Shown: in pieces, positions 31,810 through 36,712 of the stretch | Layout of the letters: every line of letters starts with the position of its first letter | Position numbering within the stretch: position 1 is the stretch's first letter | DNA from: an uncultured delta proteobacterium | Lineage (GTDB): Bacteria; Desulfobacterota; Binatia; Binatales; Binataceae | Length of the DNA stretch: 64,000 nt | Reading direction: 5' to 3' | Assembly (NCBI GenBank): GCA_963724765.1 | Contig: CAVRVY010000001.1 | Span: forward strand, 1,216,001-1,280,000 | Program-made: the position numbers and the translations under genes | The notes under the pieces: generated by a model | Told to the model about the DNA's origin: nothing | Databases searched by the model: none | The model's input: only the letters and a program-made list of their open reading frames with translations

Positions 31810-32012
31810 TGCACTCCGTCGAGGCTTAGGCCCGGCGAGACACAAGGACGAGGAAGCGAAGACTCCGGCAACGGAGCAATGCGGACATAGGCTTGGGCTA
31901 GCGCCTGGATCCTGTCGGAACGCTGAAGCAGGACCGGGACCCCGAACGGCTTGAGCGCTCCTGGAGAGCACGTTTGATGCGGGGTGCCGGTATGCGGTGG
32001 CCCCGCATTTTT
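31810..32012 (+). ncRNA. Candidate structured leader RNA upstream of panC, ending in an intrinsic terminator
   Basis: CTCCG-GCAA-CGGAG GNRA hairpin (31863-31876); bulged hairpin 31904-31938; ATGCGGGG...CCCCGCAT followed by a T-run. Confidence 0.5.
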
Positions 32013-32059
32013 GTCCGCGGCGAAATTGGCCGGTATCTCGACCAAAGAGGAAGCCGAAC

Positions 32060-32914
32060 GTGAAAATCATTACGACGCCTGCGCAAATGCACTGCCGCTC
32101 CGACGCGATACGCCGCGCGGGCAAGCGAATCGCCTTCATACCCACGATGGGCTTCCTGCATGAGGGGCATCTCAGCCTGATGCGCGAGGGCAGACGGCGG
32201 GCCGAGGTCGTGGTGGCTTCGATTTTCGTCAATCCCACCCAGTTCGCGCCCAACGAGGACTTCGGCCGTTATCCGCGCGCCTTCGAGCGCGACTGCGAGA
32301 TGATGAAGGACGTGCCGGTCGACCTGGTCTTTGCCCCGGAGCCGGATGCGATGTATCCGCCGGGCACGCAGACCTGGGTCGAGGCGTTCGAGATCACCAA
32401 GGGGCTGTGCGGAGCGCATCGTCCGGGCCATTTCCGCGGCGTTACCACAGTGGTCGCCAAGCTGTTCAATATCGTCAAGCCGCACTACGCGATGTTCGGG
32501 GAGAAGGACTTTCAGCAGTTGCGCGCGATCCAGCGGATGGTCAAGGACCTGAACTTCGACCTTGAGATCGTGCCGATGCCGACGGTGCGCGAGTCCGACG
32601 GGCTTGCGATGAGCTCGCGCAACGCCTATCTCTCCGCCGAAGAACGCCAGCGCGCGCTCAGCCTGAGCGCGGCGCTGGAAGCCGCGCGCAGCGAGTTTGC
32701 CGCCGGCGCTCGCGACCCGCGCGCGCTGGTGCGCGCCGCATGCGCGATACTCAGCGCGACGCCCGAACTCAGGATCGAGTACATCGAGGCGGTCGATTCG
32801 GAATCGCTCGCCTCGATCGCGCGGATCGAACGGCCGGTGGTGGTCGCGATCGCAGCGCGCGTCGGCAAGACGCGGCTCATCGACAACGCGATCTTCTCAC
32901 CGCCGCCCGAGTGA
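32060..32914 (+). CDS. panC: Pantoate--beta-alanine ligase
   Basis: PTMGFLHEGH, SIFVNPTQF, RPGHF, FGEKDFQQ, GLAMSSRN, RLIDN motifs; GTG start after AGAGG. Confidence 0.97.
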   Translation: MKIITTPAQMHCRSDAIRRAGKRIAFIPTMGFLHEGHLSLMREGRRRAEVVVASIFVNPTQFAPNEDFGRYPRAFERDCEMMKDVPVDLVFAPEPDAMYPPGTQTWVEAFEITKGLCGAHRPGHFRGVTTVVAKLFNIVKPHYAMFGEKDFQQLRAIQRMVKDLNFDLEIVPMPTVRESDGLAMSSRNAYLSAEERQRALSLSAALEAARSEFAAGARDPRALVRAACAILSATPELRIEYIEAVDSESLASIARIERPVVVAIAARVGKTRLIDNAIFSPPPE

Positions 32915-32936
32915 GTTTCAGAGAGGTAACTATCCC

Positions 32937-32965
32937 TTGACTGTATAAGTTCCATTTGCTAGAAT
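32937..32965 (+). promoter_or_regulatory. Sigma70-type promoter for the transposase, overlapping the left TIR
   Basis: TTGACT-17 bp-TAGAAT with extended TG; ATG lies 7 nt downstream, suggesting a leaderless mRNA. Confidence 0.7.
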
Positions 32966-32972
32966 TCCTCTC

Positions 32973-33914
32973 ATGCAGATGAGAGACCGCAAATCCCCTT
33001 CGCGGCGTGCATCTTCTGAATCACGCTACTCGCTCATGGAGTTCATGGCCGAGTTTCCTGATGACGAAGCTTGCCTGCAACGGCTCTGGCGCGACCGCTA
33101 TTCGTCGGACGGCACGAACGCCGAGTGCTCGAAGTGCGACGCCGTGCGTCCGTTTCATCGGTATGGAATGAAGCAGCAAAGGCAGTCGTGGACGTGTACC
33201 GCGTGCGGTCATCACCTGCATCCGACGGCGGGAACGATCTATCACAAGTCGTCCACGTCGCTGCATCTCTGGTTCTATGCGATGTACCTGATGACGAGCA
33301 CCCGCTGCGGTATCTCCGCGAAGCAGCTTGAGCGGGAACTTGGCGTTACCTACAAAACCGCTTGGCGTATCTTCAATAAAATTCGGTCGCTGCTTGATGA
33401 AGAAATCCGCGACTTGGCGGGAACTGTCGAAACTGATGAAACCTTTATCGGCGGCAAAGAAAAGAATAAGCACATCGATAAGCGCCTCGATTCCGGTCGC
33501 GGTACTCTCGGCAAACAGCCCGTGTGGGGAGCGATGGAGCGCGGCGGACGTGTCATTGCGGTAGTCGTACCCGATACCAAAAAGACGACATTGCTCCCGC
33601 ACGTAATCGAGCGCGTGATGCCTCGTTCGACTGTCTATTCGGACGAAGCCTACGTCTACGATCCGCTTAAGGGGATGGGCTTTCAGCATAAGCGCGTCCA
33701 TCACGCGGCCAAGATTTACGTCGAAGGCAACGTACATGTGAACTCGCTTGAAGGATTCTGGTCGCTACTCAAACGCGGAATCGGCGGAGTGTACCATTCT
33801 GTTTCTGCTAAACACTTGCAGTCCTACGTGAGCGAGTATGCTTGGCGTTATAACCATCGCAATGACCGTCGTGCGCAATTCGATACGCTACTTGTTCGGG
33901 CCGCGAGGTCGTGA
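32973..33914 (+). CDS. IS1595-family DDE transposase
   Basis: Zn ribbon CSKC/CTAC, HTH (ISAKQLERELGVTYKTAW), VETDET, YSDE, HVNSLEGFW, YVSEYAWRYN motifs. Confidence 0.95.
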   Translation: MQMRDRKSPSRRASSESRYSLMEFMAEFPDDEACLQRLWRDRYSSDGTNAECSKCDAVRPFHRYGMKQQRQSWTCTACGHHLHPTAGTIYHKSSTSLHLWFYAMYLMTSTRCGISAKQLERELGVTYKTAWRIFNKIRSLLDEEIRDLAGTVETDETFIGGKEKNKHIDKRLDSGRGTLGKQPVWGAMERGGRVIAVVVPDTKKTTLLPHVIERVMPRSTVYSDEAYVYDPLKGMGFQHKRVHHAAKIYVEGNVHVNSLEGFWSLLKRGIGGVYHSVSAKHLQSYVSEYAWRYNHRNDRRAQFDTLLVRAARS

Positions 33915-34028
33915 CGGATGCGGCTGTGGCTTTGCCGCTTTTTTAAGGTTGCGCAAAAAGTCGCTACGCTTAGGAACGGGAATCTCATAGCCCTTTGGCG
34001 TTTTTTGAGTCGGCGGCTTGTCGCTCAT
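33888..34028 (-). CDS. Small basic protein (46 aa) convergent with the transposase; absent from the ORF track
   Basis: MSDKPPTQKTPKGYEIPVPKRSDFLRNLKKAAKPQPHPSRPRGPNK; AGAGGG SD upstream. Confidence 0.55.
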   Translation of the reverse strand: MSDKPPTQKTPKGYEIPVPKRSDFLRNLKKAAKPQPHPSRPRGPNK

Positions 34029-34725
34029 GGGAAATAGCCCTCTGGACATATTCGATGACATCAAAGCCTTGCTCTATCGGGCAGACGAACACCTGACGTG
34101 GATAAAAGAGATCAGTGGCGGTCGTCATGAAATCAATAACATTACCAATGATTCTGACCTTCAAACCGGACGCGTGATTCTTAAGAAATCCTTCGACCTT
34201 ATCGCGATCCAGGTCAGAATCCGCGTCGGTGAGTGTGCGAACAGCCTCCGCAGCGCCATGAATTATTTCACCTGCGCTCTGGCCGAGCAAAGCTCTAACA
34301 GAGTTGGCAAATACGTCCAGTTTCCGATTGAAGATTACCCAGATGTCTTCAAGAGTCGGCGGCATACCCATCTCGAAGGAATTTCGGAGGAATATATCGC
34401 ACTCTTCGAGAAGTTTCAGCCGTACAAGGGATGCGACTGGATGGCTTCGCTCCGCGACTTGTCCAATTTCCACAAGCACCGACGCTTGATTCACGTAAAG
34501 AAGGATGTTCGTCAACTCACTTGGTTCAAGCCGGTAATTCAAACAATAGGCGGTACGCCCAGTAATGCCATGAAGATGGAGCACAATCTGCTCTTTAAGG
34601 TAACGCTCGAAGATGGGCGCCCCATCGTACAGTCGCTTGAGATAATTCATCTGCGCGTTACCGAGATGCTTGATGAACTCCAAGCGCTTCTCAAGAAACC
34701 TGATTGAGCTATTGTTCACGGCCAC
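33985..34725 (-). CDS. Antisense ORF (246 aa) overlapping the HEPN-like gene; coding status uncertain
   Basis: Open over 741 bp; GTG at 34719 overlaps the TGA of the upstream minus-strand ORF; codon-aligned with the plus gene, so it could be a shadow ORF. Confidence 0.3.
   Translation of the reverse strand: MAVNNSSIRFLEKRLEFIKHLGNAQMNYLKRLYDGAPIFERYLKEQIVLHLHGITGRTAYCLNYRLEPSELTNILLYVNQASVLVEIGQVAERSHPVASLVRLKLLEECDIFLRNSFEMGMPPTLEDIWVIFNRKLDVFANSVRALLGQSAGEIIHGAAEAVRTLTDADSDLDRDKVEGFLKNHASGLKVRIIGNVIDFMTTATDLFYPRQVFVCPIEQGFDVIEYVQRAISHERQAADSKNAKGL
34027..34707 (+). CDS. Passenger hypothetical protein, HEPN-like
   Basis: RADEHL...GECANSLRSAMNY...FP...QPY...LRDLSNFHKHR with an Rx5H/NxxKH motif. 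Confidence 0.7.
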   Translation: MGNSPLDIFDDIKALLYRADEHLTWIKEISGGRHEINNITNDSDLQTGRVILKKSFDLIAIQVRIRVGECANSLRSAMNYFTCALAEQSSNRVGKYVQFPIEDYPDVFKSRRHTHLEGISEEYIALFEKFQPYKGCDWMASLRDLSNFHKHRRLIHVKKDVRQLTWFKPVIQTIGGTPSNAMKMEHNLLFKVTLEDGRPIVQSLEIIHLRVTEMLDELQALLKKPD

Positions 34726-34828
34726 GTTGGATCGAGTTGTTTAAGAACGGATATTTGCTTAATCAAAATTCCCCTATGAAACCCAACTGGCCTGGTCAGT
34801 GGTGCACCAGCTGCTTCTTCAAACTTTT

Positions 34829-35188
34829 TCAGTTGTCGCGCTTGGGACTCCATATTTTAGCAATTTGCTCGCGTGTTTGTTGTTGCCAGACATGCAGGTG
34901 TTGTAATTCTAAATTCGGATCGGATAGCAGTGCCAAGCCATTGACGATTTGATCTTCGATCTCTTGCGGGAGAAAGGGCCAATGCCAACGAAAAAAGTCC
35001 CACCCGATAGCAAGCGCAAAGCATGCTAGAGCAATGAGCAGAAGTAGAATGCCCATTCCGTGCGATAGAAGCATCACAGCCGCGCCTATCGCCGTCACGG
35101 CAGTCCCGATCCACCAGCGACTTTTTGTGAGGCCGAGCGCGATCCAGCGGCTATTGCCCTGAGAGTCGTGTTGCCATGTGTTGCACAT
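34829..35188 (-). CDS. Passenger membrane protein (2 TM), possibly frameshifted into 34716-34853
   Basis: Two hydrophobic helices; TAGGCT -10-like hexamer 7 nt upstream of the ATG. Confidence 0.55.
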   Translation of the reverse strand: MCNTWQHDSQGNSRWIALGLTKSRWWIGTAVTAIGAAVMLLSHGMGILLLLIALACFALAIGWDFFRWHWPFLPQEIEDQIVNGLALLSDPNLELQHLHVWQQQTREQIAKIWSPKRDN

Positions 35189-35310
35189 GGCTCGTAGCCT
35201 AGCGCAAACGACGGGCGCACTTCTACAGTGACGGGATAGTTACCTTCAGAGAACTCCGAGCTGTTGCAATTCCCTCCTCAGTTGTTGGGGGAGGAGGTCA
35301 GAAGCGCTGT

Positions 35311-35362
35311 AAAAAAGGCACGGGGCGGAAGCGGGCCATCGGCCCGGTCCCGCCCCGGTGTG
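35311..35362 (-). terminator. Probable intrinsic terminator of the radical SAM operon
   Basis: CGGGGCGG/CCGCCCCG stem followed by T6 on the minus strand. Confidence 0.6.
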
Positions 35363-35386: not shown

Positions 35387-36712
35387 CTAGTAGTAATCGA
35401 CCGGGTCGATCTGACGCTTGGCGCCGTACCAGAACAGCATATTCTCGGTCAGCCCCTGCCAGGTGAACTTGCCCGGCGGCATCAGCAGCCGCTTGAACAT
35501 CGACTTGAACGAGTAGAACTCCTTGGTACAGCGCCACACGCCTTCTTCGACCTGCTGCGGCGAGAGCTTGTTGGGCACGAACATGCAGCGGAAGTTGTTG
35601 GTATACATGTCGGCGTCGGGGATGATGACGCGGCCTTCCTGCTCGAGTTTGGTGCGCATCGGCGTGCCCTTGCGCGGCGTGACCGTGTTGAAGAACGCCT
35701 CGGGGGCCTTGACCTCGTGAAGGAAGGCGAGGGTATCGTCGAAGATCTGCGGATGGTCTTCCTCCAGGCCGAAGAGAAAATTGAGCGAGTAGTAAATTCC
35801 GTAGTGCTCCAGCCGCTTCAGTAATTTCTTGTAGTCCTTGGTGTGATTCTGGATCTTGCTCATCGATAGCAGGCTGTCCTGGCTAATCGATTCCACTCCG
35901 ATATTGACGTGGAACACGCCGGCCTGGGCCGCCAAATCGAGCAGGTCCTCGTCATGGTTGGAATTGATGGTCCATAGACAGGAGAAACGGATGTTGAGCG
36001 GAATCAGCGCGCGGAACAGTTCGCGCGCGAACTTGTGTTTGCCGGTTATCTGGTCGTCGATGAACTGGAAGCGGCGAAAACCGGTGACCGCGATGACCTG
36101 TTTGATTTCCTCGACGATGTCCTCGATTGGGCGCGTGCGATAGCTGCCATCATAAAAGACCGGGATTTCGCAGAACGAGCAGCGGTACGGACATCCGCGG
36201 CTCGCCTGCACGGGCACCGCTTTGAACAGATAGCGGTTGAGCTTGAGCAGCTCGTGACGCGGCCGCGGCAGATTCTTGAGGTCGTGCAGTTTGTCGGCCT
36301 TGTAGGTGCGCTTGAGTTTGCCGTCCTGCCAGTCGCGCAAAAGCGGCTCCCATACCAGGTCGGCCTCGCCCTGGACCACCGCGTCGGCGTGCTTGAGCGC
36401 CTCCTCGGTCTGCAGCGTGGCATGAAACCCGCCCATCACGACCGGGATGCCGCGTTTGCGAAACTCGTCGCCGAGCTGGTAGGCGCGCAGCGAGGCGCCG
36501 ATGGTGGTGGTCATGCCGACTAGGTCCCAGCCGCCGTCGAAGTCGAGTTCTTCCAGCCGCTCATCGCACAGCGTCACGTCGAAGTCGTCCGGCGTCAGTC
36601 CCGCCAACAGCGGGATCATCAAACCCATGATCAGGCGCCAGCGCGTTTTATGCGGCGTACCGTCCAGATGGATCGTCGTTGGCTGTATCAGCAGGATCCG
36701 CGGTTTTTTCAC
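35387..36712 (-). CDS. B12-binding radical SAM protein
   Basis: N-terminal cobalamin domain (GGFHAT, GEAD), [19 protein letters not shown] motifs. Confidence 0.9.

Follow-up and report, generated by a model that had tools for sequence, protein, structure and literature searches.

The window analyzed here is a stretch of 64,000 nucleotides (nt) from an uncultured delta proteobacterium of the Binataceae (assembly GCA_963724765.1, contig CAVRVY010000001.1, positions 1,216,001 to 1,280,000), and it contains an insertion sequence of the IS1595 family at positions 32925-35244. Besides its transposase gene, this element carries a plus-strand passenger gene, opposite which a long open reading frame (ORF) runs on the minus strand. 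Across homologues of the passenger gene that are linked to an IS1595 transposase, this antisense frame is open more often than chance would allow, and codon counts in these relatives show a selection that removes TTA, CTA and TCA, the codons that read as stops on the opposite strand, and so keeps the frame open. With a probability of roughly 45%, the cargo of such elements would be used on both strands, the minus strand containing a translated frame that carries ribosomes to a conserved small gene next to the transposase. The genes and frames of the cargo are the following.

32973-33914, plus strand: IS1595-family DDE transposase gene, 313 amino acids (aa), assigned by PF12762 and NF033547
33888-34028, minus strand: small gene for a basic protein of 46 aa, recognized by homologues and codon evidence
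34027-34707, plus strand: passenger gene, 226 aa, of a large unnamed family, recognized by homologues and a four-helix-bundle model
33985-34725, minus strand: antisense ORF, 246 aa, GTG start, codon-aligned opposite the passenger gene
34716-34853, minus strand: 3' part, 45 aa, of a two-transmembrane-helix gene, in another frame than the 5' part (67% identity to residues 116-157 of the database protein P0004)
34829-35188, minus strand: 5' part, 119 aa, of the same gene (74% identity to residues 1-116 of P0004)

Antisense stop codons across the passenger family

An earlier note, made from the letters of the stretch alone, had listed the four minus-strand ORFs, which are present at exactly these coordinates, and had cautioned that the long one is codon-aligned with the plus-strand gene at 34027-34707, which is indeed the case. 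Taken by itself, the 246-aa ORF of the window is not more than chance. It starts 18 nt past the stop of the passenger gene and ends 40 nt before its start, and the passenger gene contains no TTA, CTA or TCA codon at all, the other four alternative frames having 10-16 stops. Under the codon usage of the host, 2.31 antisense stops would be expected in this gene, with a probability of 0.092 of finding none. Antisense-aligned stops are also absent from 16% of the 609 proxy genes in the 200-260 aa range, which were taken from this one genome by a rough, home-made gene call. Long codon-aligned antisense ORFs are also present opposite the transposase gene (238 aa), panC (195 aa) and a radical-SAM gene (162 and 152 aa), and in the whole element 9 antisense-aligned stops were observed vs. 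about 7.2 expected.

The earlier note had proposed testing whether the frame stays open in homologues beyond the expectation from controls. This test was run on family genes for which DNA was available, i.e., 17 loci from contigs of one genome per species and another 29 from the window's class. For this class, 401 genomes were covered, 175 of which contain a relative of the transposase (five of the 175 are flagged as unpublished, and none of those contributed loci). After removal of two exact duplicates and of fragments shorter than 150 codons, 45 distinct genes were left, among which one pair exceeded 60% identity. A gene was regarded as linked when an IS1595 transposase gene ended at -150 to +600 nt upstream of it on the same strand, a criterion that is independent of the stop count, and the first five core codons were excluded from the counts by linkage. 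The 17 linked genes contain 2 antisense stops in 4019 codons, and 16 of them have none, whereas the 28 unlinked genes, a group which also takes in genes at contig ends with their upstream DNA missing, contain 60 in 6614 codons (9.1 per 1000), and 8 of them are free of stops. The two groups differ clearly (Fisher 2.8e-5, Mann-Whitney 7e-5), although these P values are overstated, as relatives are not independent samples. Thus, the frame is open beyond what the controls predict, and only behind an IS1595 transposase.

The mean pairwise identity of the sense proteins is 0.26 in both groups, and the contents of leucine and serine and the GC content at third codon positions are equal. In the linked genes, CTA makes up 0 of 328 CTN codons, TTA 0 of 84 TTR codons and TCA 2 of 112 TCN codons, although other codons ending in A are common, with 12-50% of their boxes (20-50% for ACA, GCA, GGA, CGA, AAA, GAA and CAA). 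Counted by codon phase, the trinucleotides TTA, CTA and TCA occur 2 times in phase 0 of these genes, 253 times in phase 1 and 127 times in phase 2. In the whole family of 45 genes, where the depletion is likewise confined to phase 0, there are 7.3 antisense-stop codons per 1000 vs. 21 in GC-matched proxy genes (n = 306), and among the synonymous codons that were compared, the most depleted are TTA (0.31), TCA (0.34) and CTA (0.43), the next one being at 0.65. In the IS1595 transposase genes, 15.1 such codons per 1000 were counted (six genes of 28, kept at <60% identity). In a quick maximum-likelihood tree of the family, the linked rows are scattered, with 11 changes of which at least 6 are forced by well-supported branches.

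Two further classes of genomes were used as replicates, and both point the same way as the main set. In the class of genome G401, six linked genes have 0 stops in 1557 codons, but this replicate cannot discriminate, since the GC content there is 0.58-0.70 and 11 of 14 unlinked genes are also stop-free. In the class of G403, the linked gene L114 has one stop, at codon 5, and the unlinked genes have 5, 6 and 1.

The minus strand as an operon-like chain

The layout around the frame was compared in 17 linked loci, a set with L068 and without L009 (loci are cited by L numbers). In all 17, an open antisense stretch of 189-390 codons lies opposite the family gene. It starts 21-435 nt past the sense stop in 16 of them, and in 16 a start codon, mostly ATG, is found in the first 0-25 codons of the stretch (at codon 61 in L025). 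The stretch ends between -84 and +18 nt relative to the sense start, and several family genes confine TTA, CTA or TCA to the first five codons, exactly the place where the antisense frame ends. The frame abuts its upstream neighbours by -10 to +14 nt, and the small gene starts at most 41 nt from the stop of the antisense frame in 10 of 11 loci; in the window, that stop is reached 41 nt after the small gene's ATG at 34028 (77 nt when counted from a possible TTG start). At individual junctions, the arrangement is as follows.

L033: the ATG of the small ORF overlaps the stop of the long frame by 4 nt
L009: the stop of a protease-like gene overlaps the ATG of the frame by 4 nt
L056: a homologue of the membrane gene ends 9 nt ahead of the frame
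L030: neighbours separated by 14 and 24 nt
Window: as described earlier, the GTG at 34719-34717, in frame with the 246-aa ORF, and the TGA at 34718-34716 overlap as GTGA

In three small elements, L033 (1854 base pairs, bp), L052 (1988 bp) and L054 (1961 bp), the stop of the passenger gene is 67-73 nt from the right end. Their antisense ATG is located about 40-46 nt from the right end with a purine-rich stretch ahead of it, and it mirrors the ATG of the transposase gene, which is 48 nt from the left end.

The small gene of the window encodes 46 aa from its ATG, or 58 aa if a TTG at 34064 is taken as the start. Its product carries the motif G-x-E-I-P-V-P-K-R-x-D-F..N-L-K-K-A-A-K. The gene overlaps the 3' end of the transposase gene by 27 nt, and the CATG at 34026-34029 contains the ATGs of both the small gene and the passenger gene, as had already been noticed. 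What had been listed as a 46-aa ORF turned out to be a real, conserved gene. It is present at the same place in two copies of a related element in this genome (contigs C2 and C4) and between transposase and passenger in at least 11 linked loci from the window's class and from Actinomycetota assemblies. Among database proteins, 20 with a length of 38-52 aa share 59-80% identity with it; the copy in L002 shows 54% identity over 37 aa (E = 1e-8). In 17 sequences of the small ORF, the I, P, P and R of E-I-P-V-P-K-R are invariant in spite of 3-4 synonymous codons being used for each, and selection therefore acts on the small protein and not on the DNA. The small ORF is also found in the related elements L067, L069 and L070, where the stored flank is without a family match at E ≤ 1e-5, and in L074 and L075 its motif forms the C-terminal tail of a protease-like passenger, which is long and encoded on the minus strand. 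Since it occurs with other passengers and twice as the tail of a protease-like one, the small protein would serve the element itself rather than act as a passenger-specific partner. On the plus strand, a short terminator-like hairpin followed by a T-run is located at 33926-33947, 12 nt past the stop of the transposase gene and within the coding region of the small gene on the other strand.

The 119-aa and 45-aa ORFs had been described as two separate members of the chain. Their coordinates are right, but on sequence comparison they are the halves of one frameshifted gene for a membrane protein of 157 aa with two helices, because residues 1-116 of P0004 match the 119-aa ORF and residues 116-157 match the 45-aa ORF. 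The database homologues of the 119-aa ORF (P0004-P0007) are 157-163 aa long, the frameshift is located within the 25-nt overlap of the two ORFs (34829-34853), and L056 contains an intact homologue of 166 aa at the same position. Contigs from two other sequencing runs of two studies span the frameshift without gaps (X3, 34688-34990; X4, 34799-35252), and it is therefore present in the DNA of the population and is not an assembly slip. A scan of metagenomes with the membrane-protein family yielded one distant locus (L026) in a different context. Searches of the cargo ORFs against Pfam, NCBIfam and PADLOC gave no family names, and none of them matched the antitoxin models of PADLOC and Pfam.

Related elements without a detected family gene have one long minus-strand passenger at the position of the antisense frame, and their plus strand is closed. 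Protease-like passengers on the minus strand, read inward from the right end, were found in L074, L075, L080, L082, L083, L085, L009 and L069; the matches are Trypsin_2-like (E = 1.6e-4 and 4.6e-3, under the Pfam cutoff) and, in L069, to the ClpP-like SDH_protease (above the cutoff). In L009, the protease gene is accompanied by a family gene. The two related copies in this genome, L030 (contig C2:2581-5518 of G000) and L031 (contig C4:631961-634818), are IS1595 elements of 2.9 kb with a transposase 83% identical to that of the window. They carry the small ORF and a family member of just 23% identity to that of the window. Elsewhere in these copies, both strands are open once more, with codon-aligned frames of 231 aa on the transposase strand and 227 aa opposite. 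The transposase gene of L031 has an 80-nt deletion, and this copy is framed by the target duplication CAAAGAAA; no matching duplication was found at L030. Relatives at 77% identity in this genome were at one point thought to lack cargo, which was wrong: their right ends are about 1.9 kb further on, and they contain a family member and another gene. Transposases that are 92, 89 and 82% identical to the window's (L037/L062, L054/L063 and L052/L064, respectively) are accompanied by passengers of only 30, 19 and 19% identity; these values suggest that passengers are exchanged or evolve much more rapidly than the backbone of the element. In three loci of Actinomycetota (L023, L024 and L111), the family gene and an IS1595 transposase gene are on opposite strands. 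The transposase gene converges with the family gene and overlaps its 3' end in L023 and L024, and in L111 it is upstream and divergent.

Explanations of the open frame

If the cargo is used on both strands, the plus strand would provide the transposase and a passenger of a possibly HEPN-like family. The minus strand would be expressed as an operon-like chain inward from the right end, from the membrane gene through the 246-aa frame to the small gene. Ribosomes in the antisense frame would spare transcription from the right end a premature, Rho-type termination before the small gene is reached, and the amino-acid sequence of the 246-aa product would matter little. Consistently, the constraint on the antisense amino acids seems to be weak: over 42 conserved sense columns, the antisense identity in linked genes exceeds that in unlinked ones by 0.039, which is not significant (Wilcoxon P = 0.08).

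Several points weigh against this use of both strands. No RNA run is listed as covering this stretch. A promoter at the right end had been claimed from a -10 hexamer, and TAGGCT is indeed present 7 nt ahead of the ATG at 35188 on the minus strand, but it has no -35 partner, and a promoter scan of the right end gave no two-hexamer match of the sigma-70 type. Moreover, TAGGCT is not found in the right ends of six relatives that were compared, where the common motif is CACTGTAGAA or a close variant, and the right inverted repeat (IRR) of relatives regularly reads ATCACT, ATTACT, GTCACT or TTCACT where the left one (IRL) reads TTGACT. The first cistron of the window's copy is frameshifted, and coupling may already be lost there. 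The limits of the counts given above, i.e., the non-independence of relatives, the contig-end genes among the unlinked ones, the rough proxy set and the replicate in the class of G401, add to these points. Finally, the excess of antisense similarity over synonymous shuffles is 0.30 in linked genes, 0.15-0.19 in unlinked genes and 0.10 in a transposase control, and an AlphaFold2 (AF2) model of the antisense product from only 16 sequences reached a predicted local distance difference test score (pLDDT) of 72 and a predicted template modelling score (pTM) of 0.69. Both values would fit a functional protein better than a spacer frame.

A serious, though less probable, alternative is that the 246-aa ORF does encode such a functional protein, for example one that regulates transposition or acts as partner or antidote of the toxin-like passenger; one stretch of DNA would then encode two functional proteins along its full length. 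The stop depletion and the operon-like layout would be the same as with a frame that merely carries ribosomes, and the shuffle excess and the model confidence speak in favor of a protein. So does the choice of CCG or CCT at three conserved prolines, which is found in 14/16, 17/17 and 8/10 linked genes and in 15/26, 23/27 and 10/18 unlinked ones, and so does the presence of a real protease-like passenger at the same minus-strand position in related elements. However, the extra antisense identity over the 42 columns is the non-significant one just given, none of 16 antisense products matched Pfam below E = 0.0099, and a fold search with the antisense model in Foldseek gave no match at E ≤ 0.001. 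A language-model recognition score was 1103 for the antisense product, within the range of shuffled sequences, vs. 2234 for the sense product, a score that is not decisive for whether a gene is real. The AF2 confidence may be inflated by co-variation that the antisense alignment takes over from the sense protein. Furthermore, when the window is compared with L002, the sense products are similar (E = 1e-10) but no significant similarity is seen between the antisense products (E = 0.08). A wider version of this explanation can be put forward tentatively, with the odds against it: in an IS1595 clade present in several phyla, a stretch of ~700 nt would encode a HEPN-like effector and, in codon register on the opposite strand, its partner, with a tiny third protein at the transposase end.

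A functionless shadow ORF, which is open just because TTA, CTA and TCA are rare in GC-rich bacteria, is unlikely. The figures for the window's own gene, the proxy genes, the similar ORFs opposite the transposase, panC and radical-SAM genes, and the element-wide stop count all agree with it, as do the 8 stop-free genes among the 28 unlinked homologues. A pure shadow has nevertheless become improbable in view of the comparison of homologues, as 16 of the 17 linked genes are free of stops at a mean identity of 26%, with 9 and 15 such codons per 1000 in unlinked family genes and transposase genes, respectively, and as CTA is absent from 328 codons while other codons ending in A are common. It also leaves unexplained the start codons beyond the sense stop and the 4-nt overlaps with adjoining cistrons. 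Still less probable, and indeed very improbable, is an avoidance of the three codons for a reason on the sense strand, such as a dependence on tRNAs in a mobile element, with the open antisense frame as a by-product: a codon-level cause would equally predict the in-frame-only depletion, but the avoided set is exactly that of the reverse complements of the three stops, with the next codon at 0.65, these codons are not avoided by the transposase genes of the same elements, and the frame, which has a start codon of its own, stays open past the sense gene at either end.

The element, its passenger and known systems

The ends of the element in the window are well defined by an inverted repeat and an 8-bp target duplication, and an 8-bp duplication is the rule for the IS1595 family (ISfinder). 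The features of the ends are listed below.

32917-32924: left copy of the target-site duplication TTCAGAGA; direct repeat D16, ending at 32924 and 35252
32925-32950, plus strand: IRL, beginning with GGTAACTATCCCTTGACTGT, left arm of inverted repeat I1
32937-32965, plus strand: sigma-70-type promoter TTGACT-17-TAGAAT, with 10/12 consensus matches and TG ahead of the -10
35219-35244, minus strand: IRR, with GTCACT at the position of TTGACT in IRL
35245-35252: right copy of the target-site duplication TTCAGAGA, direct repeat

The arms of I1 (32924-32950 and 35219-35245) are 27 nt long and 89% complementary. The promoter that had been proposed at the left end is a full sigma-70-type match, with its -35 hexamer within IRL and its -10 hexamer (TAGAAT, 32960-32965) ending 7 nt ahead of the transposase ATG at 32973, and the same layout is found at the left end of L033, L054, L056 and L030. 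The transposase matches PF12762 (DDE, ISXO2/IS1595 type) with E = 2.9e-42 and 144.7 bits (cutoff 27) and NF033547 with E = 9.6e-60 and 202 bits (cutoff 75); an N-terminal zinc ribbon (PF12760) scored 18.1 bits, which is under the cutoff of 25.4.

To the left, the element is preceded by a panC-like ORF (31997-32914), ending 3 nt ahead of the target duplication, and to the right it is followed by a radical-SAM-like ORF on the minus strand (35387-36712). The GC content is about 0.62-0.69 in the flanks and 0.46-0.52 in the cargo. Just after the radical-SAM-like gene, a GC-rich hairpin on the minus strand (35310-35357; 17-nt arms, 88% complementary) is followed by a T-run. It looks like a terminator of this gene, and the right end of the element would then be shielded from read-through transcripts of the host. 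The window's copy of the element is single in its genome. Contigs of four sequencing runs match the cargo with 0-1 differing letters, and all listed differences are in the transposase gene, at 33201-33344, so that these near-identical copies offered no usable single-nucleotide polymorphisms for a comparison of synonymous and non-synonymous changes.

By sequence comparison, the passenger gene is a real gene, and its family counts 1161 representatives at E ≤ 1e-3 and 358 at E ≤ 1e-10. The residues R18, G68, R75, Q131, P132 and H151 are invariant in all 17 linked genes, and among them are the catalytic-looking R75 and H151, the latter within a D-K-H-R motif; therefore, the sense protein is evidently under selection, too. 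The protein gave no sequence-level match to models of Pfam, NCBIfam and PADLOC, 54 members of its family had no match in Pfam, and a profile search of PDB sequences with the family yielded chance rows only. Its AF2 model is confident (pLDDT 86, pTM 0.83), and Foldseek found nothing at E ≤ 0.001 with it. In a wide structural search (VIA), the best row was the HEPN chain 4nqf_B (Z = 8.8, root-mean-square deviation 3.3, 128 residues aligned), and other HEPN rows, with Z down to 6.0 over 50 rows, were interspersed with catenin, vinculin and designed bundles, these Z values being in a range common for helical bundles in general. The catalytic motif of HEPN proteins is R-x(4-6)-H, and no conserved motif of this kind is present in the passenger family. 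The arginine before H151 is R143, at a distance of 7 residues, and 2 of 10 close relatives have K or A in its place; the window's protein alone has R143-x5-H149, in which H149 is not conserved. Hence, the description of the passenger as HEPN-like in the earlier note is plausible as to the fold but finds no counterpart in a conserved motif or a family model, and membership in HEPN is a reasonable lead only.

In the ESM Atlas, the sense protein had no usable named match, and the nearest clusters to the antisense translation of 33988-34725 were those of an "Anti-phage protein Upx-like", at 0.86, which is below the lead level of 0.9. Since the reverse frame of a real gene can also be scored as that gene's family, the plus-strand family could be distantly related to the Upx-like proteins. 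Unlinked members of the family (L012, L032, L044, L047, L050, L053 and L057) adjoin restriction-modification genes, toxin-type genes and a resolvase, with Methylase_S, MmeI domains, DpnII-MboI-like, Nmad3, HipA_C, Fic and MazE among their neighbours, a gene content that is typical of defence islands.

Long antisense ORFs are usually dismissed as shadows; in bacteria, few have been accepted, and these are young and restricted to a lineage. Here, a simple codon count divides one family by its linkage to a mobile element into genes with and without a stop-free antisense frame. If two full-length proteins were indeed made, no other long antisense gene pair known from bacteria would be as deeply conserved, and this one would have been kept through repeated swapping of passengers. 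The minimal elements of about 1.85-2 kb offer a clean system for asking whether antisense translation is selected for its product or for the passage of ribosomes. In addition, the comparison defines two components of IS1595 elements, a small protein that is conserved and a toxin-like passenger that recurs, both of which bear on the self-regulation of insertion sequences and on defence-type cargo.

IS1595-family insertion sequences with passenger genes are known (ISfinder classification). The element described here has the same type of transposase, short inverted repeats, an 8-bp duplication and extra genes between the transposase gene and the right end. In the available portions of the literature on IS1595 passengers and HEPN-carrying insertion sequences, a conserved small gene that overlaps the 3' end of the transposase gene on the opposite strand, or a passenger open on two strands, is not described. 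With HEPN proteins (PDB 4nqf, 2hsb, 5yep and 7ae2), the passenger shares a predicted helical bundle that aligns best with HEPN chains, but its family differs from them in having neither a match to a sequence-level model nor the conserved R-x(4-6)-H spacing.

The AntiFam paper reportedly deals with shadow ORFs. Such ORFs are described as spurious ORFs on the opposite strand (available text of PMC8850804). The antisense frame resembles them in being codon-aligned, in having no family of its own and in being open in 16% of similar-sized proxy genes; however, a shadow would be expected to be interrupted in diverged homologues, whereas the linked homologues are uninterrupted. According to the accessible part of another study, transposons of the Tn3 family carry toxin-antitoxin pairs, which are adjacent genes of known families, some of the toxins being HEPN (PMC7157771). 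The likeness to these pairs, as far as that part goes, is a toxin-like passenger near transposition genes, but the IS1595 cargo is without a known antitoxin family, and its candidate partner frames are on the opposite strand.

The closest parallel in kind is provided by olg1 and olg2 of Pseudomonas aeruginosa, which, in the available text, are long antisense overlapping genes that are young, confined to one genus and supported by ribosome profiling, and for which the depletion of stop codons relative to the amino acids of the mother gene serves as an argument for antisense genes (PMC8850804). As in the window, a long ORF lies antisense within a gene and is argued for from stop depletion and taxonomic spread. 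Unlike olg1 and olg2 as portrayed there, the frame of the window type, in which constraint on the amino acids seems to be weak, recurs at about 26% identity in several phyla and tracks the linkage to a mobile element.

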